64,000 bases of DNA from Somniosus microcephalus (Eukaryota): assembly GCA_052327205.1 (NCBI GenBank), contig CM126205.1, positions 258,478,001-258,542,000 of the forward strand, given 5' to 3'. The stretch's first letter is position 1, and every line of letters begins with the position of its first letter. The notes beneath the pieces were generated by a model. The model saw only the letters and a program-made list of their open reading frames with translations. It was not told where the DNA came from and did not search any database. Positions 1-63,399 of the stretch are shown piece after piece. The position numbers were made by a program, and so were the translations under genes.

Positions 1-263
1 AGAAGACTGATTGGGGTTAACGGCAAATGCGTCAGGTATCGGTCATAGAAGGATCTGTACAGTATGGTAACCTGAGAACCCGTGTCGAGGATAGCTTTAG
101 TATAAATGCCTTCAATCTGTATTGATACAGCAGAACTCGGCCCTACTAAACCTTCAGGTATGATGTCTTTCATATCCCCTCGTCTATTATTGCACTTAGC
201 GGAACGTGTCTTAACTACAGGGACAGCAGGCCGTTCCGTTACTGTGCCCCTTTGTAGTTTCCC
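1..263 (-). CDS. pol: Pol N-terminus (retropepsin), -1 frame relative to gag, cut by the window edge
   Basis: Manual translation, no stops: GKLQRGTVTERPAVPVVKTRSAKCNNRRGDMKDIIPEGLVGPSSAVSIQIEGIYTKAILDTGSQVTILYRSFYDRYLTHLPLTPISL; the DTG active-site motif is present. Confidence 0.9.
211..263 (-). promoter_or_regulatory. -1 ribosomal frameshift signal: G_GGA_AAC (263-257) plus downstream stem-loop
   Basis: gag ends TCG GGA AAC TAC AAA GGG GCA CAG TAA. Downstream CTACA-AA-GGGGCACAG can pair with CTG-C-TGTCCC-TGTAG. Confidence 0.85.
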
Positions 264-1642
264 GACTTCTTGGTAAGTTTTATGAGACGGTCATTTACTT
301 TTTTTAGATTTTCCTCACCTCTACATTCTCGCTTGAAATGTCCATCCTTTCCACAGTTATAACAAAAGATTCCAGGTCTATCTCCTTCATGGGGATATCC
401 TTTAGAGGAATCATTCATTTTGCTGTTAGACTTCACAGGGTGTTCAACCTTTTGCACCCGTGCGTCATCCCTTTCTGTGTTGGGCTTAGACCGAAAATAT
501 GCCATCTCGGCTCTCGTGACATTTATTTCCTTCTTCAGCTGTTTCATCTCAGGGTTGACATCACCCTTAGGAGTAGGAACTGTAACAGGAGTCACAAGCT
601 TGGACATCACAGCACTCTTTGCTACATTCCGGGCCTGAAGCATATCCTCCTCCTCTCTGACTTCCCTTAGCAGCTCAGTGAAGGTAGGTGGATCTCGCAA
701 CTTATGGGTCATGCGTATGCGAAGAGCAGTCACGTCTTCGAGCAATGCACCTCGCACAACCTGTTCAATGCGGAACCGATTCATTTCGGGCAACTCGATC
801 CCTCTTTTCCGTAACATACAATGCAGCAGTTTGTCTATTCTCAGCAGATAACTGGACAGCTTCTCTCCCTCACACTGGAATGTGCTTCTGAATCTGACCA
901 TCAAATCTGAAATGGTTTCAGTAGTTCCAAAGGCAGTTTCTAGAGCCTGCATGTAGTCAAAGGAAGTAGCAGAGGTGTTCTGCGCCTTTAAGAATCTTAC
1001 AATGTCAGCAGCAGGACCCTTAAGGCTTTCTACTATTCTCTGCCTCTTCACATTGTCACTGCACTGCCATTCCTCTAGCAGAGGCAGGGTCTGCTCAGCC
1101 CAGGCGTCGTACTCCTCTTCCCCACTGGGAGTTGGTCTCACTCCTGAGAACATACAGAGCTTACGGTATCCCTGAGCCTCGAAGGGCAGATTGGTGCATT
1201 TATCCACCAGAGAACTAATGGCACTGACCAACTGAGTGTTCATATCCAGGGCCGAAGGACCTATCAGACCTTTGACATCAGCAACAGTCTTTCCTTCTTG
1301 TCTCAAGAATGACAACAACTTGGTCTGAAACCCTTCTTCTTCCTTAGTAGTAATAGGGACAAACTGAACTGGCCAGGGACCAGCCTCTTCAGAAAGCCCA
1401 ACTGCCTCAGGTAAACCATGACCTCTCAGGTTCTCTGATGTCTGGATCAACACAAACTGCTTCTTGGTAGCTGTATCCAAGCAGCGCTCAACTATCCTAA
1501 CCTTTCCAAAGGCTTTGACACAATTCAGAGCCCTTAGCAAGACATCATCAGGGTCATCGTTAGCAACACCATTCAGCACAATGGCATGGGTAGTAGCTAT
1601 CTGCTTCCGTTTGCACCAAGCTTCAACCTCAATAACATCCAT
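239..1642 (-). CDS. gag: Gag, PNMA-like capsid protein with C-terminal zinc knuckle (467 aa, intact)
   Basis: PNMA-type motifs YRKLCMFSG..P..GEEEYDAW, W..SD..KRQRIVESLKGPA, Q..GEKLS.YL.R, PPTF.EL.REVREEE; knuckle CYNCGKDGHFKREC. Confidence 0.93.
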   Translation of the reverse strand: MDVIEVEAWCKRKQIATTHAIVLNGVANDDPDDVLLRALNCVKAFGKVRIVERCLDTATKKQFVLIQTSENLRGHGLPEAVGLSEEAGPWPVQFVPITTKEEEGFQTKLLSFLRQEGKTVADVKGLIGPSALDMNTQLVSAISSLVDKCTNLPFEAQGYRKLCMFSGVRPTPSGEEEYDAWAEQTLPLLEEWQCSDNVKRQRIVESLKGPAADIVRFLKAQNTSATSFDYMQALETAFGTTETISDLMVRFRSTFQCEGEKLSSYLLRIDKLLHCMLRKRGIELPEMNRFRIEQVVRGALLEDVTALRIRMTHKLRDPPTFTELLREVREEEDMLQARNVAKSAVMSKLVTPVTVPTPKGDVNPEMKQLKKEINVTRAEMAYFRSKPNTERDDARVQKVEHPVKSNSKMNDSSKGYPHEGDRPGIFCYNCGKDGHFKRECRGEENLKKVNDRLIKLTKKSGNYKGAQ

Positions 1643-1733
1643 CTTTTATGCTCAGACAGCCCAGTAGAAACCACAAACCACTCTTAGCAATGAGCATTCA
1701 ATACTGTTAGTTTACTGACATAAATAGACCACA

Positions 1734-8907: not shown

Positions 8908-11179
8908 TAGGGTTGCAAAGGGGTGGAAAGTTTCCGGGAAATTTCCGGAAATTTTCCACGGGAAGTTTAGCTTGGGAATTTGGGGAATTTTGCCCAAAAA
9001 AGCACATGCTAGCATAATATTGTTTTTTTTGTATTTCTTTCTTTTTTTTCCCCCCACAGGTCCTCTCTTTAAAATTACTAACAGAGATGGAATCTTAATT
9101 ATTAAGGAATTCTTAATCAATATATGTTTATCTTCTTACTTGGCTTGTTTTAATAATTACAAGTTTTGTGTGTGACTGAACAAATGTGTCCTGATTGGTT
9201 GGATAAGTGGATGAGCGATTAGCTCCCTCTATTTGTAATATTTGCATATCGAATTGTGATTGGCCTGCAGGTATCTAAGACTGCTATAGTTTTTTTAAGA
9301 TCCAGGTTAGGGGTCCTGAGGGAAGTCATTTTGTTTTCTGCTGATGTTGTGATGATGCAGTAAGTAAATCAGACTTTATACCAAATAAACCAGTTACTTG
9401 TTGAACTCTGTTGTCCTTCAATTTAAAACATACAAAATAATACACTATTGGTGATGTAGCGTTGTGTGTGTACAGGTCATGCTTCCATCACATGGAGCAT
9501 CAGCAAAAATGTACTCACCCTGTTGCAATCGTGCTGATCGACCGCAGTTCGACACAGAGATGAATGCCCTTTATTTCTCTGCATAGAACAATGCCACGTT
9601 TACCGTCAGATGTGTGGAAGCATTTTACCCCAGGCATTAAAGATGGAAAGACTGTGTACATATGCAGACACTGTAGAAAGCCATATGTAAAGAATGCCAC
9701 AAAGATGCAGCAGCATTTATCCAACGATCTTGGATCACAAAAGGTCTTTGCAGTAGTTACTGACAATGCTGTGAATATGAAGTCTGCTTGGGCTCAAGTG
9801 GAGGAGGCCTACCCTCATATTACGTCTATTGGGTGCGCAGCTCATGGGCTTAACCTGCTCCTCAAGGACATCATGGGTTTGAGAACCATGGAAGCACTGT
9901 TCAAGAGAGCCAAGCAAGTTGTTAAGTATGTCAGGGGAAAACAGATAGTTGCAGCAACCTACAACTCCAAGCAAATGACGAAGAACAAGAACACCACACT
10001 GAAGCTGCCCAACAACACTAGATGGGGTGGTGTTGTCATAATGTACAACAGCCTTCTGGAGGGTAAGGAGTCGTTGCAAGAAATGGCAATATCCCAGTCT
10101 GGGGATATGGAAACCACCATCAAGAAAATACTGCTGGATGATGTGTTTTGGGAGAGAGTGGTTAGCAGCCTTAAACAACTATCACCAGTAGCATCTGCAA
10201 TTGCTCAGATTGAAGGAGATGACGCTGTCTTGTCAGATGTTCTCAGGCTTTTTACTGATTTAAAAGAACAAATCAGCATTGCCCTACCCACATCCCTGCT
10301 GCTCAAAGCAGAGGAGAAGGCAATTGTTCAATTCATACAGACGCGTCAAGAATTTTGTGTCAAGCCGATTCATGCTGCAGCATACATGCTGGACCCAAAG
10401 CATGTTGGGAGACCAATACTTTCTGGAGAACAGATCAACAGCGCTTACAGTGTGATTTCTACCCTCTCACACCATCTCAATCTGGATGTGGGCAAAGTTC
10501 TGGGAAGTCTGGCAAAGTTCTCTACCAAGCAAGGTCTATTGAATGGGCACGGGATATGGGAATCATGCAAGCATATCAGTGCACATACCTGGTGGAAGGG
10601 ACTTTGTGCACCTGAGGCCCTGTCACCTATTGCATCGGTGATACTCCAAATCCCACCTTCATCAGCGGCCTCTGAACGAAACTGGTCACTTTTTGGGAAT
10701 ACGCATACAAAGGTGCGCAACAGGCTGACTAACGAGAGAGTGGAGAAACTGGTGGCTATCCAGGCGAACCTACAATTTATTGAGCCAGATACAGAAGTGT
10801 CCACCACACAGCTAGACACTGACACAGAGGAGGAAATGGACACATCAGAGCCAGAGTCAGAGAATCAGGAGGAGCAATGAGGAGTAGAAGACTCAAAGGG
10901 ACAAAATAAGGACAAATTACAGGCTAAATAAGCTGACGCTCTTTTTATTTTATTGTAGATGGGTCTTTTTTGTGGGGGTTCAAAAAAGCTCAAAATTATA
11001 ACCTAAATAAAGTTTTGAAAGCCTGTTTTTATTTGTATGGAACAGTATGTCTATTTTGACGACAAAGATAATATAAGGGTCAGAGACAAAAACCATCAGT
11101 GTGCAAAAAAACTCAAAATTCCCGAAAATTCCCATGGAAAGTTTCCTCTTTTAAAAATTCCCAGAATTTTGCAACCCTA
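8908..11179 (+). mobile_element. hAT DNA transposon, internally deleted, both ends intact
   Basis: TIRs TAGGGTTGCAAA / TTTGCAACCCTA; perfect 8-bp TSD TTCTCTGC (8900-8907, 11180-11187); subterminal GGAAA/TTTCC arrays. Confidence 0.97.
9591..10880 (+). CDS. hAT transposase with in-frame internal deletion (partial BED finger + C-terminal catalytic part + hATC dimerisation domain)
   Basis: VWKHF..CRHC..MQQHL is fused directly to VVTDNAVNM; CAAHGLNL, TRW, AAYMLDP, WW and SSAASERNWS motifs follow. The ATG at 9591 follows a splice acceptor (TTTCTCTGCATAG, 9586); donor GTAAGT at 9360. Confidence 0.88.
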   Translation: MPRLPSDVWKHFTPGIKDGKTVYICRHCRKPYVKNATKMQQHLSNDLGSQKVFAVVTDNAVNMKSAWAQVEEAYPHITSIGCAAHGLNLLLKDIMGLRTMEALFKRAKQVVKYVRGKQIVAATYNSKQMTKNKNTTLKLPNNTRWGGVVIMYNSLLEGKESLQEMAISQSGDMETTIKKILLDDVFWERVVSSLKQLSPVASAIAQIEGDDAVLSDVLRLFTDLKEQISIALPTSLLLKAEEKAIVQFIQTRQEFCVKPIHAAAYMLDPKHVGRPILSGEQINSAYSVISTLSHHLNLDVGKVLGSLAKFSTKQGLLNGHGIWESCKHISAHTWWKGLCAPEALSPIASVILQIPPSSAASERNWSLFGNTHTKVRNRLTNERVEKLVAIQANLQFIEPDTEVSTTQLDTDTEEEMDTSEPESENQEEQ

Positions 11180-22558: not shown

Positions 22559-23280
22559 CCCCACCTGACGTTGGGTCATCCAGACTCGAGTCGTCGTTGG
22601 CTTGTTCTCTCTACACAGATGCGGCCGGAACTGCTGTGATTTCCAGCAAAAGAAATGTTTTTTTGTCTTTTTTGTTTTTCATACAGACCCCAGCATCTGC
22701 AACATTTGACCCCTTGTGACCCCACCTCCTTGTTCTTTGATGTAACGTTTTCCTGACTGACCTGTTTGGACACCATTCACACCTTTGATTGCTGTGATTA
22801 TCTCTCTGCCGAGGTGTGATAAATGGCAGTTAGAAAGATTACCTGTAACCATCTGGCATTATTCTCTGACTATATAAGCTGTGTTGTGCATTGAGTGCTG
22901 CTAGAGTTTGGTAAGAGGGAGAAAAGTCATTTAAGTGTATTTTGTGAATTTTAGTGTGTTAAAAAGTTAATTATTTGAAGTGTGTTTAATTTTTAAGTGT
23001 ATATTAAACTGTTGGGGAGTTTGAACTGGAAGTAGAATCAGGGTATAAAAGGGGCGGGACTAGTGCGTGTGCATGGAGTGCTGTGCATTGAGTGCTGCTA
23101 GAGTTTGGTAAGGGAGAGTTCGGGCAAGTGGGAGGTGAGGGTGTGTTTTTGCTCTGTTTTGTTCCCCACTCCCAGGCTTAGACAGCACTGCGGAAGCGGA
23201 GCAGCGAGACGAGTCAACCAAACAGGCCCCACAGACAGTATTCAAGGAGGAGGTTGGTGATCAGCTGGTTGGTTGGTTTT

Positions 23281-26200
23281 ATACATAGATACATAGAAGA
23301 TAGGAGCAGGAGTAGGCCATTCGGCCCTTCGTGCCTGCTCCGCCATTCGATGAGATCATGGCTGATCCTTTAATTCAGTATCCCGTCCCCGCCTTCTCTC
23401 CGTAACCCTTAACCCCTTTTGCCCGTAGAAATATATCTAATTCCCTCTTAAATATATTTAATGAGCTGGCGTACACTGCCCTCTGTGGCAATGAGTTCCA
23501 CAGGTTCACCACTCTCTGAGTGAAGAAATTCCCCCTCATCTCTGTCCTAAATGGTTTAGCCCTTATCCTTAAATTATGTCCTCTAGTTCTGTTCTCACCC
23601 GCCAAGGGAAACATTCCTTCTGCATCCAGTCTGTCTAGACCTGTCAGAATTTTATACACTTCTATGAGGTCCCCTCTCAATCTTCTAAACTCCAGTGTGT
23701 ACATCCCTAAACTACATAGTCTCTCCTCATAGGTCATTCCCGCCATTCCTGGTATCAGCCTGGTGAATCGCCGCTGCACCCCCTCCATGGCAAGAACATC
23801 CTTCCTCAGATGAGGCGACCAAAACTGTACACAGTACTCGAGGTGTGGTCTCACCAGTGCCCTGTACAGCTGCAGCAAGGTATCCCTGTTCCTGTATTCT
23901 AACCCTTTTGCTATGAAGGCCAGCATACCGTTTGCCTTCTTGACCGCCTGTTGCACCTGCATGCTCGCCTTCAGTGACTGGTGTACAAGAACACCCAGGT
24001 CTCTCTGTACTTCCCCCTCTCCCAATCTATTGCCATTTAAATAATAATTTGCCCTCCCGTTCCTGCACCCAAGGTGGATAACTTCGCACTTGTCCACATT
24101 ATAGTGCATCTGCCATTTATCCGCCCAATCGCCCAGTCTGTCCAAATCGCTCTGGAGCTTCCTGGTCTCTTCCTCTGAGCCCACCCCCCCTCCTAGTTTA
24201 GTGTCGTCTGCAAATTTGGAAATGCTGCATCCGACTCCCTGATCCAGGTCATTAATGTAAATTGTGAACAGCTGGGGGCCCAGGACAGATCCCTGTGGTA
24301 CCCCACTTGTTACTGCCTGCCATTCAGAAAATGAGCCGTTTATTCCAACTCTCTGTTTTCTATCTGACAGCCAGTTCCCTATCCACGCCAAAACTTTCCC
24401 CTTTATCCCATGAGCCTCAATTTTCCATGCTAATCTTTTATGTGGGACCTTATCGAAGGCCTTTTGGAAGTCCAGGTACACCACATCTACTGGCTCTCCC
24501 CCATCTATTCTACCAGTTACTCCCTCAAAAAATTCCAATAGATTAGTCAAGCACGATTTACCCTTTGTAAATCCATGTTGACTCTGTCCTATCCTGTCCC
24601 CATTTGCTAAGTGCTCCGCTATTTCATCCTTAATGATGGACTCCAGCATTTTGCCCACAACTGATGTAAGGCTTACAGGTCTGTAATTACCTGCTTTTTC
24701 CCTACCCCCCTTTTTGAATAGTGGGGTAACGTTAGCTACCCTCCAATCCATCGGCACTGTTCCCGAGTCTAATGAATTCTGAAAAATCATCCTTAGTGCA
24801 TCCGCTATCTCTAGGGCCACCTCCTTCAGTACCCTAGGATGCATGTTATCAGGCCCTGGGGATTTGTCCACCTTCAATCCCTTTAGCTTCCTTAACACCA
24901 TATCCTTAGAGATATTGATTTGCGTCAGTTCCTCCTTTGCCAATGTCCCTATTTTTCCCGATATCCCAGGGAGGTTTTTTGTGTCTTCCTTCGTAAAGAC
25001 TGACCCAAAGTATGCATTTAGTTGATCTGCCATTTCCTTATTTCCCATTATATATTCCCCCGTATCTGACTGCAATGGACCAACTTTGGTTTTCACCAGT
25101 CTTTTCCTTTTGATATATTTATAAAAGCTTTTGGAGTTAGTTTTTATATTTTCCGCCAGCTTGTTTTCGTAAGCTATTTTGCCCCTCTTGATCATGCCCT
25201 TTGCCCTCCTTTGCTCTATCTTAAACTGTTCCCAATCTTCCGCTCTGGCGCTTTTTTTGGCTATTTTATACGCCCTATCTTTGGATTTTATGCTGTCTCT
25301 AATTTCCCCTGTTATCCACGGTTGAGTCACCTTTCTAGATTTCCTTTTATGCCAGATTGGTATAAACAATTTTTGCAATTTTGTCATTCTATCTTTAAAT
25401 GTTTGCCATTGTTTATCTACCTCCAGTCCTCCCAGGAACGTTGTCCAATCAGACCTACTCAGTTCCCGTCTCATGGCATCATAATTCCCCTTGTTTAAAT
25501 TCAGGACCTTAGTCTCTGAGTCAATTTCTTCGCTCTCCATTTCGAGTGAGAAATCGATCATGTTATGATCGCTCTGACCCAAGGGTCCCCGTACAACAAG
25601 ATTACTGATTAGTCCCTTCTCATTGCACAGTACCCAGTCCAATATAGCCTGTTCCCGAGTTGGTTCCTCGACATATTGATCCAGATAACCATCCCTTAAA
25701 CACTCAAGGAATTCCTCCTCCTCATTATTTTTACTGATTAGGCTAGTCCAATCTATATGTAAGTTAAAGTCACCTATGATGACAGCTGTGCTCTTATTGC
25801 ACGCTTCTCTAATTTCCCTCGTGATGCCCTCCCTAACCTCTATTTTACTATTTGGAGGCCTATATACCACTCCTATTAATGTTTTTCGCCCCTCGCTATT
25901 TCTTAGCTCCACCCATATAGATTCTGTATTAACTGAGTTAATATCCTTCTTTTCAATTGCATTTATCCCCTCTTTTACTAGCAATGCTACCCCTCCTCCC
26001 TTTCTTTTTTGTCGATCCTTCCTAAATACTGAATACCCCTGTATGTTAAGCTCCCAGCCCTGCTCACCCTGCAACCATGTTTCCGTAATCCCAATTAGAT
26101 CATAATTATTAACCTCTATTTCCACAGCTAATTCATCTACCTTGTTCCTGATGCTTCTCGCATTAAGGTATAAAACCCTCAGGCTTTTTTTATGCTCACA

Positions 26201-26326
26201 TTTTTTATGAATTAGTTTGGCCCTTTGTTTTTTGTTCCTCACCCTTTTACCATTTATTTCTGTCTGCCTTTCACTTTCCTCTATTTCACTACATAGGTTT
26301 CTAGCCCCCTGCCATACTAGTTTAAA
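23281..26326 (-). mobile_element. CR1 LINE (copy B), 5'-truncated at the ORF1/ORF2 junction, young
   Basis: Uninterrupted ORF2, CR1 3' stem and (TATGTATC)n tail; host copy A resumes at 26327. Confidence 0.95.
23375..26326 (-). CDS. CR1 ORF2, AP endonuclease + reverse transcriptase, intact
   Basis: YLNARSIRNK, ITETWL, GDFN, SDH; NYRPVSLTS, LDFQKAFDKV, GVPQGSVLGP, FADD. The listed 955-aa ORF starts at a GTG (26242), but the frame stays open 28 codons further to TTT AAA at 26326. Confidence 0.95.
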   Translation of the reverse strand, partial: FKLVWQGARNLCSEIEESERQTEINGKRVRNKKQRAKLIHKKCEHKKSLRVLYLNARSIRNKVDELAVEIEVNNYDLIGITETWLQGEQGWELNIQGYSVFRKDRQKRKGGGVALLVKEGINAIEKKDINSVNTESIWVELRNSEGRKTLIGVVYRPPNSKIEVREGITREIREACNKSTAVIIGDFNLHIDWTSLISKNNEEEEFLECLRDGYLDQYVEEPTREQAILDWVLCNEKGLISNLVVRGPLGQSDHNMIDFSLEMESEEIDSETKVLNLNKGNYDAMRRELSRSDWTTFLGGLEVDKQWQTFKDRMTKLQKLFIPIWHKRKSRKVTQPWITGEIRDSIKSKDRAYKIAKKSARAEDWEQFKIEQRRAKGMIKRGKIAYENKLAENIKTNSKSFYKYIKRKRLVKTKVGPLQSDTGEYIMGNKEMADQLNAYFGSVFTKEDTKNLPGISGKIGTLAKEELTQINISKDMVLRKLKGLKVDKSPGPDNMHPRVLKEVALEIADALRMIFQNSLDSGTVPMDWRVANVTPLFKKGGREKAGNYRPVSLTSVVGKMLESIIKDEIAEHLANGDRIGQSQHGFTKGKSCLTNLLEFFEGVTGRIDGGEPVDVVYLDFQKAFDKVPHKRLAWKIEAHGIKGKVLAWIGNWLSDRKQRVGINGSFSEWQAVTSGVPQGSVLGPQLFTIYINDLDQGVGCSISKFADDTKLGGGVGSEEETRKLQSDLDRLGDWADKWQMHYNVDKCEVIHLGCRNGRANYYLNGNRLGEGEVQRDLGVLVHQSLKASMQVQQAVKKANGMLAFIAKGLEYRNRDTLLQLYRALVRPHLEYCVQFWSPHLRKDVLAMEGVQRRFTRLIPGMAGMTYEERLCSLGMYTLEFRRLRGDLIEVYKILTGLDRLDAEGMFPLAGENRTRGHNLRIRAKPFRTEMRGNFFTQRVVNLWNSLPQRAVYASSLNIFKRELDIFLRAKGVKGYGEKAGTGY

Positions 26327-26447
26327 TGCTTCTCTTTTATTCCTTTAAGTTGGTAAGTCCTATTGAATAGTGGTGTAATAGTATCATCTATATCGGGGCA
26401 AAGGGTCTTCATAACTAATAATAATAAATTTAATTAATTACATAGAT

Positions 26448-27395
26448 ATGGGTGAACAGGTGATGTGTCACTGTTGCGAAATGTGGGAGCTGGTGGACCC
26501 CATTGAGGCTCACAGTGATTACATTTGCGATAAGTGTTTGCTGCTAGAGGAACTCAACCTCCATGTTAAAGAGCTTGAGACCGAGCTTCAGACACTGCGA
26601 CACATCAGGGAGGGGGAGAAGTTCCTGGACTCTATGTTGCAGGAGGTGGTCACACCTATGAAATTAATTACTGTAGATGTAGTCCGTGGTCAGGGACAGG
26701 ACGGTGTGACTACAAGTGAGGAAAGGGATCCAGGATGTAGTGTTGAAGGAGACGCAGCCCTTGCTCTTGTCAAGCAGGATCGAGGTTCTTACTCCCTGTG
26801 AGGGTGGGAGCGGGGACTGCAGGGAGGATGAGCAACCTGGCCACAGCACCGTGGAACAGGGGGCCATTCAAGTGGAGGGAGTAAAAAGAAATGTTGTAGT
26901 GGTAGGGGATAGTATCATTAGGGGGATAGATAGGGTTCTCTGCAGTTGAGAGCGGGAGTCCCGAAGGCTGTGTTGCCTGCCCGGTGCCAGGGTTAAGGAC
27001 ATCTCTTCTGTGCTGGAAAGAAACTTGGAGTGGGAGGGGGAGGATCCAGTTGTCGTGGTCCATGTTGGTACAAACGACGTAGATAGGACAAGGAAGATGG
27101 TTCTGTTAAAGGAGTATGAGCAGCTAGGGGTCAAATTAAAAAACAGAACCTCAAGGGTAATAATCTCTGGGTTATTACCTGAGCCACGAGCAAATTTGGC
27201 TAGGATAAATAAAAAGAGTTAAATGCGTGGCTCAAAGACTGGTGTGGGAGAAATGGGTTTTGCTTCTTGGGACACTGGCACCAGTACTGGGACAGGAGGG
27301 AGCTGTTCCGTTGGGACGGACTCCACTTGGCCAGTGCTGGGACTAGAGTCCTGGCGAATCATATAACTAGGGCTGTAGAGAGGGCTTTAAACTAA
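26448..27395 (+). pseudogene. CR1 ORF1 (zinc finger, coiled coil, SGNH esterase), disrupted
   Basis: CHCCEMWE..YICDKC, leucine-zipper heptads, VVVGDSIIRG, VHVGTND, DGLHL; ends RALN*; contains frameshifts and a stop. Confidence 0.88.
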
Positions 27396-30388
27396 TTAGT
27401 GGGGGGAAGGTTTCTCGAGAGCAAATAATAGAAATGACAACGGAGAAGGTCATAGACTTGGGTAGCAGTGGGGGAATTAAAAAACAGAACGTGTCAGGAA
27501 GGGACAGAAGGTATGGAGTAAAAAGTAAAGCACTAAAAGGGGAAAAAACAGGAACTAAGTGTTACAAAACATATTTGAAAGTTCTTTATCTGAATGCACG
27601 TAGCATTCGTAACAAAATGAATGAGTTAACGGCACAAATAACGACATATGGGTATGATCTTGTGGCCATTACAGAAACATGGCTGCAGGGTGACCATGAC
27701 TGTTAAATAACCTGGTATGTTTAAGTCCCAATCAGGAAGGACAGGCAGGAAGGGAGGGGAGGTGGGGTGGCTATGTTAATAAAGGAAGGAATCACTATAA
27801 TACAGAGAAATGATATTGGGTCAAAGGAGCAGGATAGTGAAACAGTTTGGGTGGAGATAAGGAATAATAAGGGGGAAAAAAACACTAGTGGGTGAAGTCT
27901 ATAGGCCTCCGAACAGTTGCAACTCTGTTGGACGGAGTATTAATCAGGAAATAGTTGAGGCTTGTAATAAGGGAACAGCTATAATTATGGGGGATTTTAA
28001 TTATCATATTAACTGGACAAATCAAATTGGGCAGAGCAGCCTTGAGGATGAGTTCATTGAGTGTATTAGGGATGGGTTTCTTGAGCAGTATGTAACTGAA
28101 CCAACCGGGGGCAAGCAACCTTAGATTTGGTCCTGTGTAATGAGACAGGATTAATTAAAAATGTCCTAGTAAAGGATCCCCTTGGAATGAGTGACCATAA
28201 CATGGTTGAATTCCATATTCAATTAGAGGGTGAGAAGGTTGGATCTCAAACAAGCGTGCTGAGCTTGAATAAAGGAGACTATGAAGGTATGAGAGCGGAA
28301 TTGAGTAGAGTGGACTGGGAAAATAGATTAAAGGGTAAGACGGTACATGATCAGTGGTGTACATTTAAGGAGTTATTTTACAACTTCCAAAAAATATATA
28401 TTCCACTGAGGGGAAAAAAGGGTGTAAAAGAAAAGATAGCCATCCGTGGCTAAGTAAAGTAATTAAGGATAGTATCCGACTAAAAACAAGGGCATATAAG
28501 GTAGCCAAATCTAGTGGGAGGATAGAAGATTGGGAAGTCTTTAAAAGACAGCAAAAAATAACTAAAAGATTGATTAAGAAAGGGAAGATAGATTATGAAA
28601 GTAAATTAGCAAAAAATATAAAAACAGACAGCAAAAGTTTCTATAGTTATATAAAAAGTAGAAGGGTGGCTAAAGTAAATGTTGGTCCCTTAGAGGATGA
28701 GACCGGGAAATTAATGGTGGGAAACATGGAGATGGCAAAAACGCTGAACAATTATTTTGTATCAGTCTTTACGGTAGAGGACACTAAGAATATCCCAACA
28801 CTGGACAAACAGGGGGCCCTAGGGGGGGAGGAGCTAAATACGATTAAAATCACTAAGGATGTGGTACTTGGTAAAATAATGGGACTCAAGGCGGATAAAT
28901 CCCCTGGACCTGATGGCTTGCATCCTAGGGTCTTGAGGGAAGTGGCGGTAGGGATTGTGGATGCATTGGTAATAATTTTCCAAAACTCCCTGGACTCAGC
29001 AAAGGTCCCGGCAGATTGGAAAACTGCTAATGTAACACCCTTATTTAAAAAGGGTAGTAGGCAGAAGGCTGGAAACTATAGACCTGTTAGCCTAACATCT
29101 GTGGTTGGTAAAATGTTAGAGTCCATTATTAAGGAGACAGTAACGGGACATTTGGATAAACATAATTTAATAGGACAAACTCAGCATGGTTTCATGAAGG
29201 GGAAGTCATGTTTGACAAATTTGCTTGAGTTCTTTGAGGAAGTAACATACAGGGTGGATAAAGGGGAACCAGTGGACGTAGTGTATTTAGACTTCCAAAA
29301 GGCATTTGACAAGGTGCCACACAAAAGATTATTGCTCAAGATAAAAAAAAATCACGGGATTGGGGGTAATATTCTGGCGTGGGTGGAGGATTGGCTCTCT
29401 AACAGAAAGCAGAGAGTTGGGATAAATGGTTCGTTCTCAGACTGGCAACCAGTAACTAGTGGTGTTCCGCAGGGGTCAGTGCTGGGTCCCCAACTCTTTA
29501 CAATCTATATTAACGATTTGGAGGAGGGAACCGAGTGTAGCATATCAAAGTTTGCAGATGATACAAAGATGGGACGGAAAGTAGTGAGTGAGGAGGACAT
29601 AAAAAACCTGCAAAGGGACATAGACAGGCTAAATAAGTGGGCAGAGATTTGGCAGATGGAATACAATACTGGAAAGTGTGAGGTTATGCACTTTGGCAGG
29701 AAAAATCATCGAGCAAGTTATTATCTTGATGGCAAGAAACTGGAAAGTACTGTAGTACAAAGGGATCTGGGGGTCCTGGTGCACGAAACTCAAAAAGTTA
29801 GTATGCAGGTGCAGCAAGTGATCAAGAAGGCCAATGGAATGTTGGCTTTTATTGCTAGGGGGATAGAATATAAAAACAGGGAGGTATTGCTGCAGTTGTA
29901 CAAGGTATTGGTGAGACTGCACCTGGAATACTGCATACAGTTTTGGTGTCCATACTTAAGAAAAGACATACTTGCTCTCGAGTCAGTACAAAGAAGGTTC
30001 ACTCGGTTAATCCCGGGGGTGATGGGGTGGTCATATGAGGAGAGGTTGAGTAGATTGGGCCTCTACTCATTGGAGTTCAGAAGAATGAGAGGCGATCTTA
30101 TTGAAACATATAAGATTGTGAAGGGGCTTGATCGGGTGGATGCGGTGAGGATGTTCCTAATGATGGGTGAAACTAGAACTAGGGGGCATAATCTTAGAAT
30201 AAGGGGCTGCTCTTTCAAAACTGAGATGAGGAGAAACTTCTTCACTCAGGGTGGTAGGTTTGTGGAATTTGCTGCCCCAGAAAGCTGTGGAAGCTACATC
30301 ATTAAATAAATTTAAAACAGAAATAGATAGTTTCCTAGAAGTAAAGGGAATTAAGGGTTACGGGGAGCGGGCAGGAAATTGGACATGA
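27386..30388 (+). pseudogene. CR1 ORF2 (EN-RT), disrupted
   Basis: ORF pieces 27434-27706, 27888-28453 and 28570-30309 carry all EN/RT motifs, with several frameshifts. Confidence 0.92.
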
Positions 30389-30574
30389 GTCTAGGTTCGG
30401 CATGGTCATGGCCCTGTGGGTAGTGGAGTGGGCCCAGGGGCCGTGTAGCCTGGTTCTGCTCCTACTGTGTTCTAATTCTGTGTTAGATTTCAGGAGATGG
30501 TTTTATTCCTGTTCCTGGCTGGGGTGGAGATCGCCTTTACAGAAGGTAAGTACTGTAGAAAATATAGGGACAGC

Positions 30575-30694
30575 GTGATCTCCTGGACGAGTTTCGATCG
30601 CCTAGATGGGTCGGAGAGGAATTTCCCAGATTTTTTTCTCCCAAATTGGCCATTGGGTCTTTTATCTGGTTTTTCGCCTCTCCCGGGAGATCAC
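30575..30694 (+). other. Predicted multi-helix RNA structure in CR1 3' UTR
   Basis: GTGATCTCCTGG/CCGGGAGATCAC closing helix enclosing TTCGATC/GGTCGGA, GAGG/CCTC, CCAGAT/ATCTGG and CCCAA/TTGGG. Confidence 0.6.
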
Positions 30695-32070
30695 ATGGGC
30701 TCGGGTGGATGGGGAGTGATAGAAGATTTGAGGTTAGGATCAGATCAGCCATGATCTTATTGAATGGTGGAGCAGGCTCGAGGGGCCGATTGGCCTACTC
30801 CTGCTCCTATTTCTTATGTTCTTATGAATAATCAAACTGTTACATATTTACAGTAGTGAAGTAGTTCTATAATTTTAGTTATAAGTCTAACTCCCCAACA
30901 AGACTAAATAATAAAAATATATTTTGATTCTAAATGGGTCATTAGAAGATCCAAGAGAGAAACTGTGGTTGTCTCCTTTCTTCATTTTAATTCTAAGGGA
31001 ATCCCTGTGAATCTGAGATCACTGCTTATCCCTGTGTCATTTCCTGAAAGTCTGTCCTTTGTCGAATATCAAATATAGAGCAAACCATCATTTGATGAAC
31101 CAATCTTGCTGGAACATGCATTAGGTCATAGAAAATGTGTTTGTTATTTGCCTGTTCACATTTCTAGGTCATTGTGCGCCCTCAGCAATAACCAGGGTCA
31201 ATTTTGTCTGGCATCGGTGCTTCTTGTGCGTCTCCTGTGACAAGCTGCAGATTTCTGCTTTTTTAAGTGAATATTCCAGGAGAAGCCACCACATTGACCA
31301 TAATCAGAAATATTTGCAAAAATATACCACAATGCATCTAATTTACACAGTAGAAAGTTTTGTTAGTTTCTAATTCTTACCAAGCAGTAGGAGTTCTCTT
31401 CAGGAAGTCAGCATTCTTCACACCATTTCTGAAGTTTGGTGCTGAAATGTAGCATTTCATCAATCACCCTCTGCTTCCAGCATCACCTGCTGCTTCACTA
31501 AAAACACAAAATAGCCTGGGCATCTGGGGCCTTGCTGAATAGTTAAATGATGCTCTTCTTCATTCAGACCTCCCTCATAAACTGTGAACTGTTCCAGTCT
31601 TGTTTGGTTCATGGAAATAGCTTTCTATTTGTCCTGATATCTTTGGGATAGCTCCCTCATGTGACCCTTCCCAATATACTCAGGACTTCTGCAGTATCTA
31701 GTTCTTCACCCTCTTCTCCCCCACCCCAAAATTTGAGATGGTTATCCACACTTCCAGCATCACTTTAATTAAACTTTGAGACAAGCTCTGCAGTTCTTAC
31801 GGGTTCTCAGAGGTAGAAGCACAGTGTTTAGTCCTTGTGCTTGGTTATACTTTCATCTGTCTTTTTGGTTTTTCTCTTCAAATTGGCCAGACAAACTCCT
31901 GCGATTGCAGACTTTCTGCTGAAGTTAAATTAGTTTTATATCAAGGGACACCAAATTCAGAATGCAGATACTGATTGTAATATTCTATGCTCAATTTAAT
32001 GGCTCTTGGGGTGCCACAATCAATTTTTTTTTTAAGAGCTGGATACATTTGTCATGTAATGTTAAATTCA

Positions 32071-48174: not shown

Positions 48175-51100
48175 CTCAGAGCGGCAGCGGTGGCGGACCT
48201 GTGAGGGGCGAGGCTCGGGTAGGCCTCCGAGCAGCGGCGGTGATAAAAACAGCGGCGAGGCTCAGGTAAGCCTCAGAGCGGCGGCGGACCTGTGAGGAGC
48301 GAGGCGGTGGCGGTGATAAAAGCAGCGGCGAGGCTCAGGTAGGCTTACCAATCTCCGAGCTCAGAGGGAGGGAGAGAAGTAAAAAGTAATCGAAGTGTGA
48401 CGTCACCAGAAAGCAGGTAAGTGATTGGTTGGTCAGTACTTCTCTCTTTTTTAAACTTAAACTCTGTGGTTTATAGTTTCTAAGCTCTCTGTGGTGTAGC
48501 GGGGACTGTTGGTAAACCAGGGCCCTTAAGTATATCATTTAACTGTAGTGTAATTGCTGGGATTGATTTGATTTGATTTAATTTAATTTAATTTGAATTA
48601 ATTAAAGGGTAAGTCATGGCAGAAGAGCTCGGCCCCGTGGTATGCTCCTCCTGCACTATGTGGGAAATCAGGGACACTTCCTGTGTCCCTGACGACCATG
48701 TGTGCAAGAAGTGTATCCAGCTGCAGCTACTGGCAGACCGCATTGTGGCTGGATACATACTGGACCATTCGCAATGCTGAGGACGTCGTGGATATCACGT
48801 TTAATCAGTTGGTCACACCGCAGGTAAAGGTTGCACAGGCAGAAAGGGAATGGGTGACCAACAGGCAGAGTAGTAGGCGCAGGCAGGTAGTGCAGGAGTC
48901 CCCTGTGGGCATCCTCCTCTCAAACAGATATACCACTTTGAATACTGTTGAGGGGGATGGCTTATCAGGGAAAAGCAGCAGCAGCCAACTTCCTGGCACC
49001 AGGGGTGGTTCTGCAGCACAGGACGGGAGGAAAAAGAGAGGCAGAGCTATAGTAATAGGGGATTCTATTGTAAGGGGAATAGATAGGCGTTTCTGCGGCC
49101 ACAAATGAGACTCCAGGATGGTGTGTTGCCTCCCTGGTGCAAGGGTCAAGGATGTCTCCGAGCGGCTGCAGAACATTTTGGAAGGGGAGGGTGAACAGCC
49201 AGTTGTCATGGTGCATATAGGTACCAACGATAGAGGTAAAAAATGGGATGCGGTCCTAAAAGCAGCACGGTGGCATAGTGGTTAGCACTGTTGCCTCACA
49301 GCGCCAGGGACCCGGGTTCGAATCCGGCCTCGGGTGACTGTCTGTGTGGAGTTTGCACATTCTCCCCGTGTTTGCGTGGGTTTCCTCTGGGTGCTCTGGT
49401 TTCCTCCCACAGTCCAAAGATGTGCGGGTTAGGTTGATTGGCTATGATAAATTGACCCTTAGCGTTAGGGGGATTAAATACGTGGGGTTACGGGGATCGG
49501 GTGGGATATGTGTCGGTGCAGGCTCGATGGGCTGAAATGGCCTCTATCTGCACTGTGGGGTTTCTGTGTTTCTGTGAATATAGGGAGTTAGGAGGTAAAT
49601 TTTAAAAAATAGGACCTCAAAGGTAGTAATCTCAAGATTGCTACCAGTGCCACGTGCTAGTCAGAGTAGAAATAGAAGGATATTTCAGATGAATACATGG
49701 CTAGAGGAATGGTGCAAGGGGGAGGGATTCAAATTCCTGGGACGGTTTGCACCTGGGCAGGGCCGGGACCGATGTCCTAGGGGGAGTGTTTGCTAGTGCT
49801 CTGGGGGAGGGTTTAAACTAAAATGGCAGGGGGTTAGGAACCTGAGCAGGGAGACAGAGGAAAGGGAAACAAGGATAAAAGCAAAAGATAGGAAGGAGAA
49901 AAACAAAAGTGGCAGTCAGAGAAATCAACGGTTTAAATCAAACATGGCCACAGTAAATAATAATTCAAAAAGGTCTAAGAGCATTAAAAAAAACAAGCCT
50001 GAAGGCTTTGTGTCTTAATGCGAGGAGCATTCGTAATAAGGTAGATGAATTAGCTGCACAAATAGAGGTAAACGAATATGGTTTGATTGGGATTATGCAA
50101 ACCTGGCTCCAGGGTGGCCAAGGCTGGGAACTCAACATGATTCAGGAAAGATGGGCAAAAAGGAAAGGGAGGTGGGGTAGCATTGCTGGTTAAAGAGGGG
50201 ATTAACACAATTGTAAGGAAGGATATTAGCTCTGATGATGTGGAATCTGTATGGGTAGAACTGAGAAATACCAAGGGGCAGAAAACGTTAGTGGGAGTGG
50301 TATATAGACCCCCAAACAGTAATGCGGAGGTTGGGGATGGCATTAAAAGGGAAATTAGAGAAGCGTGCAATAAGGGCACAGCAGTTATCATGGGTGACTT
50401 TAATCTACATATAGATTGGGCTAACCAAATTAGTAACAATACTGTGGAGGAGGAATTCCTGGAGTGTTTACGGGATGGTTTCCTGGACCAATATGTCGAG
50501 GAACCAACTAGAGATCAGGCCATCTTAGACTGGGTATTATGTAATGAGAAAGGATTAATTAGCAATCTTGTTGTACGAGGCCCCTTGGATCAGAACGATC
50601 ATAATATGATAGAATTCTTCATTAAGATGGAGAGTGAAGTAGTTGACTCAGAGACTAGGGTCCTGAATTTAAGTAAAGGAAACTACGATGGTATGAAGCG
50701 TGAGTTAGGTAGGATTGATTGGGGAATGTCACTCAAAGGGTTGACGGTGGATAGGCAATGGCAAACATTCAAAGACTGCATGGATGAACTACAGAATTTG
50801 CTCATCCCAGTTTGGCATAAAAATAAAACAAAAAAGGTGACTCAACCATGACTAACAAGGGAAATTAGGGATAGCATAAGATCCAAGGAGAGGACATATA
50901 AATTATCCAGAAAAAGCAGTAAACCTGAGGATTGGAAGCAGTTTAGGATTCCACAAAGGAGGACAAAGGGATTAATTAAGAAGGGGAAAATAGAGTATGA
51001 GAGTAAGCTTTCAGGGAACATAAAAACTGACTGTAAAAGCTTTTATAGATATGTGAAGAGAAAAAGATTGGTGAAGTCAAGCGTAGGTCCCTTGCAGTCA

Positions 51101-62382: not shown

Positions 62383-63399
62383 TTACATATGAGACTCGTC
62401 GTCCTCGTCGTCTTCTCCTGTTGCTTGCAGTTCGTCTGTCGTTGATAGCCAGGGTTTTATCGCATCTCCAGATGCTACTGGAATGCCAGCGAGGGCCAAT
62501 TTACAACATACTTTCAAAATCGTTGTCATAACACAACATATTGTCATCACTACAACAACAATTATAAATCCATGTATCAAATACAATCCCCATGATCCTC
62601 CGAAGAGCCAGTCCAACCAACCTTCCCCTGAGGTTTGGTGTAATTTCTTTACCTCCTTTTGTATATGCTCGGCCAAATTGGTTATATTCTCTGAGCTATC
62701 TGGTATGTAGGTGCAGCACTCAGCGCCTATCATTGTGCATGTGCCACCTTCTTTAGCTAGGAGATAATCAAGGGCCATCCTATTCTGGAGAGCTATTGTT
62801 CTCATAGCCACCATTTCTGCACTTATTTCAGACAGGGCTTCAGCTGTGTCATTAGCTACTTTCTCTAATACCGATTGCTACGAGTCGAATTTCCTTTATT
62901 GCCCTAGCCGTCCCATACCCGGGGAATAAAATAGCGAAGAACCGCTCTGTTTCTGTAATTGCCCTTTTGGAGCGATAATGGTGATGATCTGCTAGGGAGG
63001 GCAAGTGATGGATGTATGGCACCACATATCCCAAATAGCAAGACCCAGTCCAATTTCGTGGAAGCCATGGGTATGCCTTATGTCCGCAAATAAAATAGGT
63101 CCCGTTTTCTGCTCTGGGTGTCCTTACCATTAGTACTACTGCTCGTATTGTTTCTACTAACTAACCACTCAGCCATTTGAATTACATTCAATGGTATTGG
63201 TCTAAGAGGGATTCCCCCTCTGGAGTGGATTGGGATATGGCTACATACCCAACATGCACTTTCTCCCTTGTCCCTTGCATACACAACTCATATACAAAAA
63301 GGTATTAACATGTAATTCTCGCTTTTCCCATACCGGGTGGCATGTCACTTTGGTCAATGCCACACATATTCCACAAAACAATACTATAGTCAAATACAT
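62383..63399 (-). pseudogene. env: Gamma-type env with three frameshifts and a very short SU
   Basis: Signal peptide MYLTIVLFCGICVALTKVTC, CWVC, W.GSCYLG, furin site RSKR, fusion peptide FFAILFPGYG, ISD LQNRMALDYLLAKEGGTC, CX6CC, TM helix. Confidence 0.92.

Follow-up and report, generated by a model that had tools for sequence, protein, structure and literature searches.

A slippery heptamer conserved at the ORF1-ORF2 junction of shark CR1 retrotransposons is a probable programmed -1 frameshift site

The window (the whole 64,000-nucleotide stretch analysed, from the 6.4-Gb genome of the shark Somniosus microcephalus) carries three retrotransposon copies, here called A, B and C. By the homology of ORF1 and by comparison with named consensuses, they are LINEs of the CR1 type with an esterase ORF1. 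The closest relatives of this ORF1 are found in rays and sharks, and homologues were found in rays, sharks, coelacanth, frogs and turtles. The esterase, of the SGNH/GDSL type, was recognised as a PF13472 match in L019, an intact relative of copy A; domain matches in L019 and in copy B place an APE endonuclease (EN) ahead of the reverse transcriptase (RT) in ORF2.

Copy A (22885-30820, plus strand) is a full-length element interrupted by copy B. The first part of its 5' UTR (22885..23280) is 95% identical to L019, a full-length locus of family A, and the match picks up again at 26329, beyond the insertion. ORF1 (26448..27395), with a Cys-pair N-terminus followed by the esterase, is broken by two small deletions and one premature stop. 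Its end reads GCT TTA AAC TAA, as the preliminary description had it: the heptamer T_TTA_AAC occupies 27386..27392 in the X_XXY_YYZ phase and adjoins the stop (TAA, 27393..27395). The same description took the -1 frame to be the open frame of ORF2, and indeed this frame runs from the heptamer as FKLISGG...LKVLYLNARSIRNK, free of stops for 106 codons into an endonuclease motif. Upstream, a TAG at 27368..27370 closes it five codons before the heptamer, and the interval contains no ATG. In the linker (27396..27574) only the -1 frame is open, and a G run at 27401..27406 covers positions +11 to +15 past the heptamer, its last G being changed to A in this copy. ORF2 follows at 27575..30309, its EN being disrupted from 27704 onward and its RT open over 28369-30309. 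A short inverted lesion at 27700-27731 terminates the -1 frame in the EN region.

Copy B (23281-26330, minus strand) is a young copy nested head-to-head within the 5' UTR of copy A. Its -1 frame is intact for 983 codons from the heptamer (23375..26326, minus strand) and comprises linker, EN and RT, with Exo_endo_phos at codons 55-254 and RVT_1 at codons 541-751. The heptamer with its TAG lies at 26317..26326 and a G5 run, 11-15 nt past the heptamer, at 26305..26309 (both minus strand). Copy C has its heptamer, together with TAA and a G5 run, at 49812..49833 (plus strand); a 44-nt deletion affects the ORF1 end above, and within an A run ahead of EN the -1 frame is shifted. Both copy A and copy C are dead, the former despite its full length (ORF1 is broken and ORF2 is stopped at 27704). 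It had been claimed that copies B and C repeat the junction of copy A. The heptamer followed by a stop is indeed present in both (26326-26320 on the minus strand, with TAG, and 49812-49818, with TAA), but the 5' truncation of copy B ends a few bases before the heptamer and leaves it no ORF1 inside the window, so that the phase of its heptamer can be read only from full-length relatives, where it holds. The further claim that the linkers share no start ATG stands as worded, with the qualification that copy A itself has an in-frame ATG at 27434-27436.

The heptamer is a regular feature of ORF1 ends across this genome. Among own-genome loci collected up to L308 and anchored on the esterase motif, it is exact at 154 of 162 ORF1 ends; 135 of these are in phase and 19 are displaced by indels, and the other eight ends differ by single bases. 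By family, exact heptamers were found in 29/30 loci of family A, where the query included the site, and in 24/25, 27/30 and 13/15 loci of families B, C and E, where the query did not contain it. One DNA search on family B gave no match. Five lineages carry the heptamer, and their linkers are only about 37-57% alike in global alignment; since the lineages share ancestry, these counts lack independence. Forty arbitrary 10-kb stretches of the genome contained four ORF1 ends, three of them exact and one decayed. Within the window the heptamer is mildly enriched (24 occurrences versus 15.6 after shuffling). The evidence is its fixed position and phase over lineages, the raw count being unremarkable. 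We also considered a hotspot of 5' truncation at the heptamer, hinted at by 3 of 25 loci, and rejected it, as the genome-wide exact counts drop just from 1609 to 1568 to 1540.

We then compared 20 lineage representatives, chosen with the heptamer present (the unbiased figure being the 154/162 above). All 20 end ORF1 with TTA AAC, whereas Gly and Leu residues that are conserved further upstream are each encoded by three to five different codons. The codon before TTA AAC always ends in T and encodes six different amino acids (Ala, Gly, His, Ser, Cys, Thr). The stop after the heptamer is TAA, TAG or TGA, and is read as part of a Leu codon in the -1 frame every time. From the codon usage of the elements themselves, the heptamer would be expected in about 1-6% of cases at most. 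In reads and contigs of four runs, 33 variants at a frequency of at least 4% fall within 27320-27460 and none within 27381-27395. Synonymous variation in the Leu-Asn codons, which the preliminary description had named as evidence against its reading, was looked for and not seen in the 20 representatives. By these comparisons, conservation of the nucleotides at the heptamer exceeds what the protein would need. Leu-Asn is also invariant at the protein level, in a set drawn mostly from proteins with that ending. The residues Lys, Glu, Gln, Met or Trp precede Leu-Asn in 1/37 cases, a weak test given that position -7 also yields 1/37.

The same junction recurs in other animals. Leu-Asn ends 102 of 120 ORF1 homologues, a set with much redundancy. 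Of 47 host-derived metagenome loci, 28 were inspected and 18 extend to the end of ORF1; the heptamer is present in 17 of these 18, and next to it comes TAG in 11, TGA in two, TAA in one and a sense codon in three. Most of these loci are, we assume, of the bird type. In two bird-type loci (L119 and L147), AAG takes the place of the stop, possibly marking a subfamily without an adjacent stop. Vertebrate canonical CR1 elements as published have an esterase ORF1 and an APE-RT ORF2 (PMC13343379), and their consensuses share the junction: 17 of 23 motif matches in the supplement lie at the end of ORF1 as judged by eye, in 11 species (halosaur, bowfin, bullfrog, coelacanth, alligator, crocodile, elephant shark, two sharks and two rays), a count of matches only, from excerpts of 400 letters, which says nothing on misses or frames. 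Two dogfish consensuses of that supplement (SquAca_CR1-18 and CR1-3) also have a motif resembling heptamer plus stop in their 5' part; it was not seen in the seven family-A-type loci checked. A stingray annotation (P0121) has the same junction and was excluded from the counts. The searched supplement files of PMC4316615 and PMC7140322 did not contain the junction sequence.

More distant ORF1 proteins suggest that the heptamer can be exchanged. The best 150 profile matches gave 97 with the motif and a short tail, 66 of them non-redundant. Of these tails, 39 end in Asn: 26 in Leu-Asn (L-N), eight in Gly-Asn (G-N), one in Lys-Asn (K-N) and four in other pairs. L-N, K-N and G-N are the peptides of U_UUA_AAC, A_AAA_AAC and G_GGA_AAC, respectively, which are three of the four most shift-prone heptamers according to an excerpt of PMC5009743. 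Gln, which has no codon ending in T, precedes L-N in 0/30 cases and G-N in 7/8, so that seven of the eight G-N tails read Q-G-N. Overall, the preceding residue violates the heptamer rule in one of 41 tails. Among tails not ending in L-N, 10/37 fit A_AAA_AAC or G_GGA_AAC, versus 1.8 in shuffles (maximum 6 in 2000 shuffles); 21 of the 66 match none of five heptamer patterns. Thus, from the proteins alone, distant relatives apparently swap among the classic slippery heptamers, and the group ending in Q-G-N or G-N may be one clade. DNA for the Q-G-N, K-N and invertebrate-like groups was not found in viral contigs or plasmids, and genome contigs yielded one unrelated locus only for the distant groups. 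Five of the distant proteins (P0202, P0227, P0256, P0289 and P0300) have Gly-Phe or Phe-Phe near the tail end, which would fit further slippery heptamers.

The frame downstream of the heptamer was followed in 25 representatives, of which 21 could be parsed; an EN motif could be located in 17. Stops between heptamer and EN, another feature proposed as a test, are absent from the -1 frame in 15 of the 17, over 35-95 codons, and the two failures are old copies. The other frames are closed, with stops in the +1 frame in 17/17 and in the 0 frame in 16/17. Linkers differ between lineages in length and sequence; among related linkers, net indels are multiples of three and substitutions are spread evenly over codon positions, as for a translated spacer of free sequence. 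In 51/57 rows of shark-type copies, the -1 frame meets a stop five codons upstream of the heptamer, so that in most of these copies an upstream AUG cannot serve. This upstream stop is common to the shark-type lineages despite the changing ORF1 residue and is less regular in bird-type loci.

A conserved AUG for ORF2 was likewise searched for, and none is shared. In copy B the first Met is codon 256, after the entire EN domain, and its junction occurs in 1568 exact genome copies; the first Met of family B is codon 256 in 26/30 loci, the other four being broken before any Met. Intact copies of family D1 have EN from codon 47 and their first Met at codon 179. Families B and D1 hence have no AUG before EN, and none that could be used. 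The first AUG downstream is out of frame in families B, C and D. Linker Met codons are absent from 8 of the 17 representatives and differ in position among the rest; ATG stands at codon 5 in four of the 21 representatives, none of them from families B, C and D. ORF2 is open from the heptamer and, in families B and D1, has no start of its own. Several bird-type families keep an in-frame linker AUG, and so does family A, with an ATG at codon 17 in 30/30 loci, of which 13 are still in frame to EN. Single-frame copies of 1286-1300 codons also occur; they are scattered over star-like trees and differ in the length of a G run only, which points to recurrent slips or assembly errors; they are evidence neither for a lineage with fused ORF1 and ORF2 nor for frameshifting. 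In family D (L209-L218 and L220-L227), a G8 run before the heptamer often varies in length, and single ORFs as long as 1300 codons result.

The sequence past the heptamer is conserved in another way. G occupies positions +11, +12, +13, +14 and +15 in 20, 20, 20, 19 and 18 of 21 representatives, respectively, and is kept despite varying amino acids. A conserved 3' fold was not detected by pseudoknot-free prediction, with z near 0 in most of 21 representatives, and no conserved long-range pairing partner for the G5 element was found. With neither, the usual stimulator of frameshifting is missing. A G-quadruplex, judged by eye, was discarded, families A and B being without four clear tracts. RNA reads derive from many copies in a related organism and are uninformative on translation; no run among those listed holds the junction, none of the splice joints listed crosses it, and the AG past the heptamer is not conserved.

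Given an ORF2 in the -1 frame and several young families without an AUG before the enzyme part, the second protein is likely to arise by slippage. We therefore suggest that the heptamer is, very probably, a programmed -1 frameshift site, by which EN and RT of CR1 would be made as an ORF1p-ORF2p fusion. Most ribosomes would stop at the end of ORF1 and release ORF1p; a minority, shifted back by one base at the heptamer, would continue into ORF2, yielding an ORF1p-linker-EN-RT product of about 1290 residues. As the cause of the pause we propose the adjacent stop together with the G5 element, which lies 11 nt past the heptamer and may bind a protein or pair at a distance, in place of a local hairpin or pseudoknot. 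Judged from sequence, the CR1 junction is a real and deeply conserved recoding-type signal, of known mechanism, in a host for which we found no earlier description and with an atypical stimulator. We are more hesitant, and somewhat short of even confidence, about a wider proposition: that the esterase-ORF1 CR1s of jawed vertebrates and their distant relatives obtain RT only through such a Gag-Pol-like fusion, with a structure-free stimulator made of stop and G5 that a host or element protein may bind.

The proposed arrangement resembles known systems in part. The sites of IBV coronavirus and of the retroviral gag-pol type, as treated in part of PMC5009743, share with CR1 the U_UUA_AAC heptamer and its phase, as well as a short upstream ORF made in excess and a polymerase in the -1 frame; CR1 differs in being a non-LTR element, in having no predicted 3' hairpin or pseudoknot and in the stop adjoining the heptamer. 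No protease domain was seen in CR1, so that the fusion may stay uncut. Among APE-type non-LTR elements, TRE5-A and TRE3-A of Dictyostelium, which belong to a different clade and have a different ORF1, require a -1 frameshift for ORF2 (excerpt of PMC5911963). Both parts of the presumptive stimulator have partial counterparts in the same excerpted review (PMC5009743): pea enation mosaic virus (PEMV) needs a stop 3 nt past the shift site, whereas in CR1 it is directly adjacent, and PRRSV uses a short protein-bound motif 11 nt past the shift site, which is C-rich where that of CR1 is G-rich.

Mammalian L1 and silkworm SART1 have, like CR1, a bicistronic LINE RNA with low ORF2 output, and they reinitiate to make a free ORF2p (excerpts of PMC5009743, PMC3708506 and PMC2699510). 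Reinitiation as in L1, for whose ORF2 a novel initiation without AUG is presumed (PMC5009743), would mean for CR1 a restart on a non-AUG codon just past the ORF1 stop, where heptamer and G5 would act as signals for termination or tethering. Such a restart accommodates the families without AUG, the open linker, the well-conserved adjacent stop and the missing stimulator fold. From such a restart one would not predict a heptamer that matches X_XXY_YYZ exactly and lies in slip phase, nor a -1 offset held constant across linkers of 35-95 codons, nor what looks like an exchange for other slippery heptamers, and the codon that would serve as start varies (AGT, TGG, CGG, AGG, TCG, GAA, ATG); we consider it unlikely. 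Coupling of stop and start at an AUG, for which SART1 is the precedent, or reinitiation at a linker AUG, draws its support from family A, where the constant ATG at codon 17 shows no variant above 4% in four runs, and from five bird-type loci (L102, L105, L106, L109 and L135) with an in-frame AUG two bases past the stop. A conserved AUG at or overlapping the stop, as in SART1, was not found among 21 representatives, and the absence of Met before EN in families B and D1, the eight representatives lacking a linker Met, the inconsistent Met positions in the others and the out-of-frame AUGs of families B, C and D argue that such coupling is not general. In family A and some bird-type elements, at least, coupling of this kind could operate as an additional route; as the explanation of the junction we regard it as very improbable.

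The junction might instead be kept for reasons of protein or of other processes than translation, such as a C-terminal Leu-Asn, a binding motif, a splice signal or polymerase slippage. The invariance of Leu-Asn in a set mostly of such proteins, the changeable G8 run of family D and the similar motif in the 5' part of the two dogfish consensuses could all be read in this sense. Constraint on the protein would leave the codons free, and usage alone would then rarely give the heptamer; neither the unconserved AG nor the RNA joints listed suggest splicing across the junction; families A and B and the bird-type loci have no G8 run; and an ORF2 without AUG would be left unexplained. We hold this possibility to be slight. 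Frameshifting thus remains our preferred reading of the junction.

The mode of translation of LINE ORF2 is described as an open question in an excerpt of PMC3708506, and CR1-group elements are the dominant retrotransposon in most vertebrates according to an excerpt of PMC13343379. The main text of PMC13343379 contains no occurrence of frameshift, overlap, translation or start codon, and we found no proposal of CR1 frameshifting among the papers searched; an earlier mention in the CR1 work of 1997 or in Repbase notes is possible. If true, frameshifting would provide a testable answer on ORF2 translation within a cassette of about 40 nt and explain the layout required of an active CR1 construct. 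It would also move the true start of ORF2 in CR1 annotations, tie EN and RT physically to the esterase ORF1p and set the ratio of ORF1 to ORF2. Should the structure-free reading also be true, CR1 would add to the natural -1 frameshifts one that is very widespread and whose stimulator is of a kind not yet described; a stimulator that is conserved but has no fold would be of interest to the recoding field.

Three unrelated features were noted elsewhere in the window. A 468-codon ORF at 239-1645 (minus strand) has PNMA and zinc-knuckle domains, as in a Gag-like gene. An ORF for a hAT-type transposase with a BED finger lies at 9564-10880 (plus strand), and an Env-like fragment (PF00429), probably a retroviral remnant, at 62383-62877 (minus strand).
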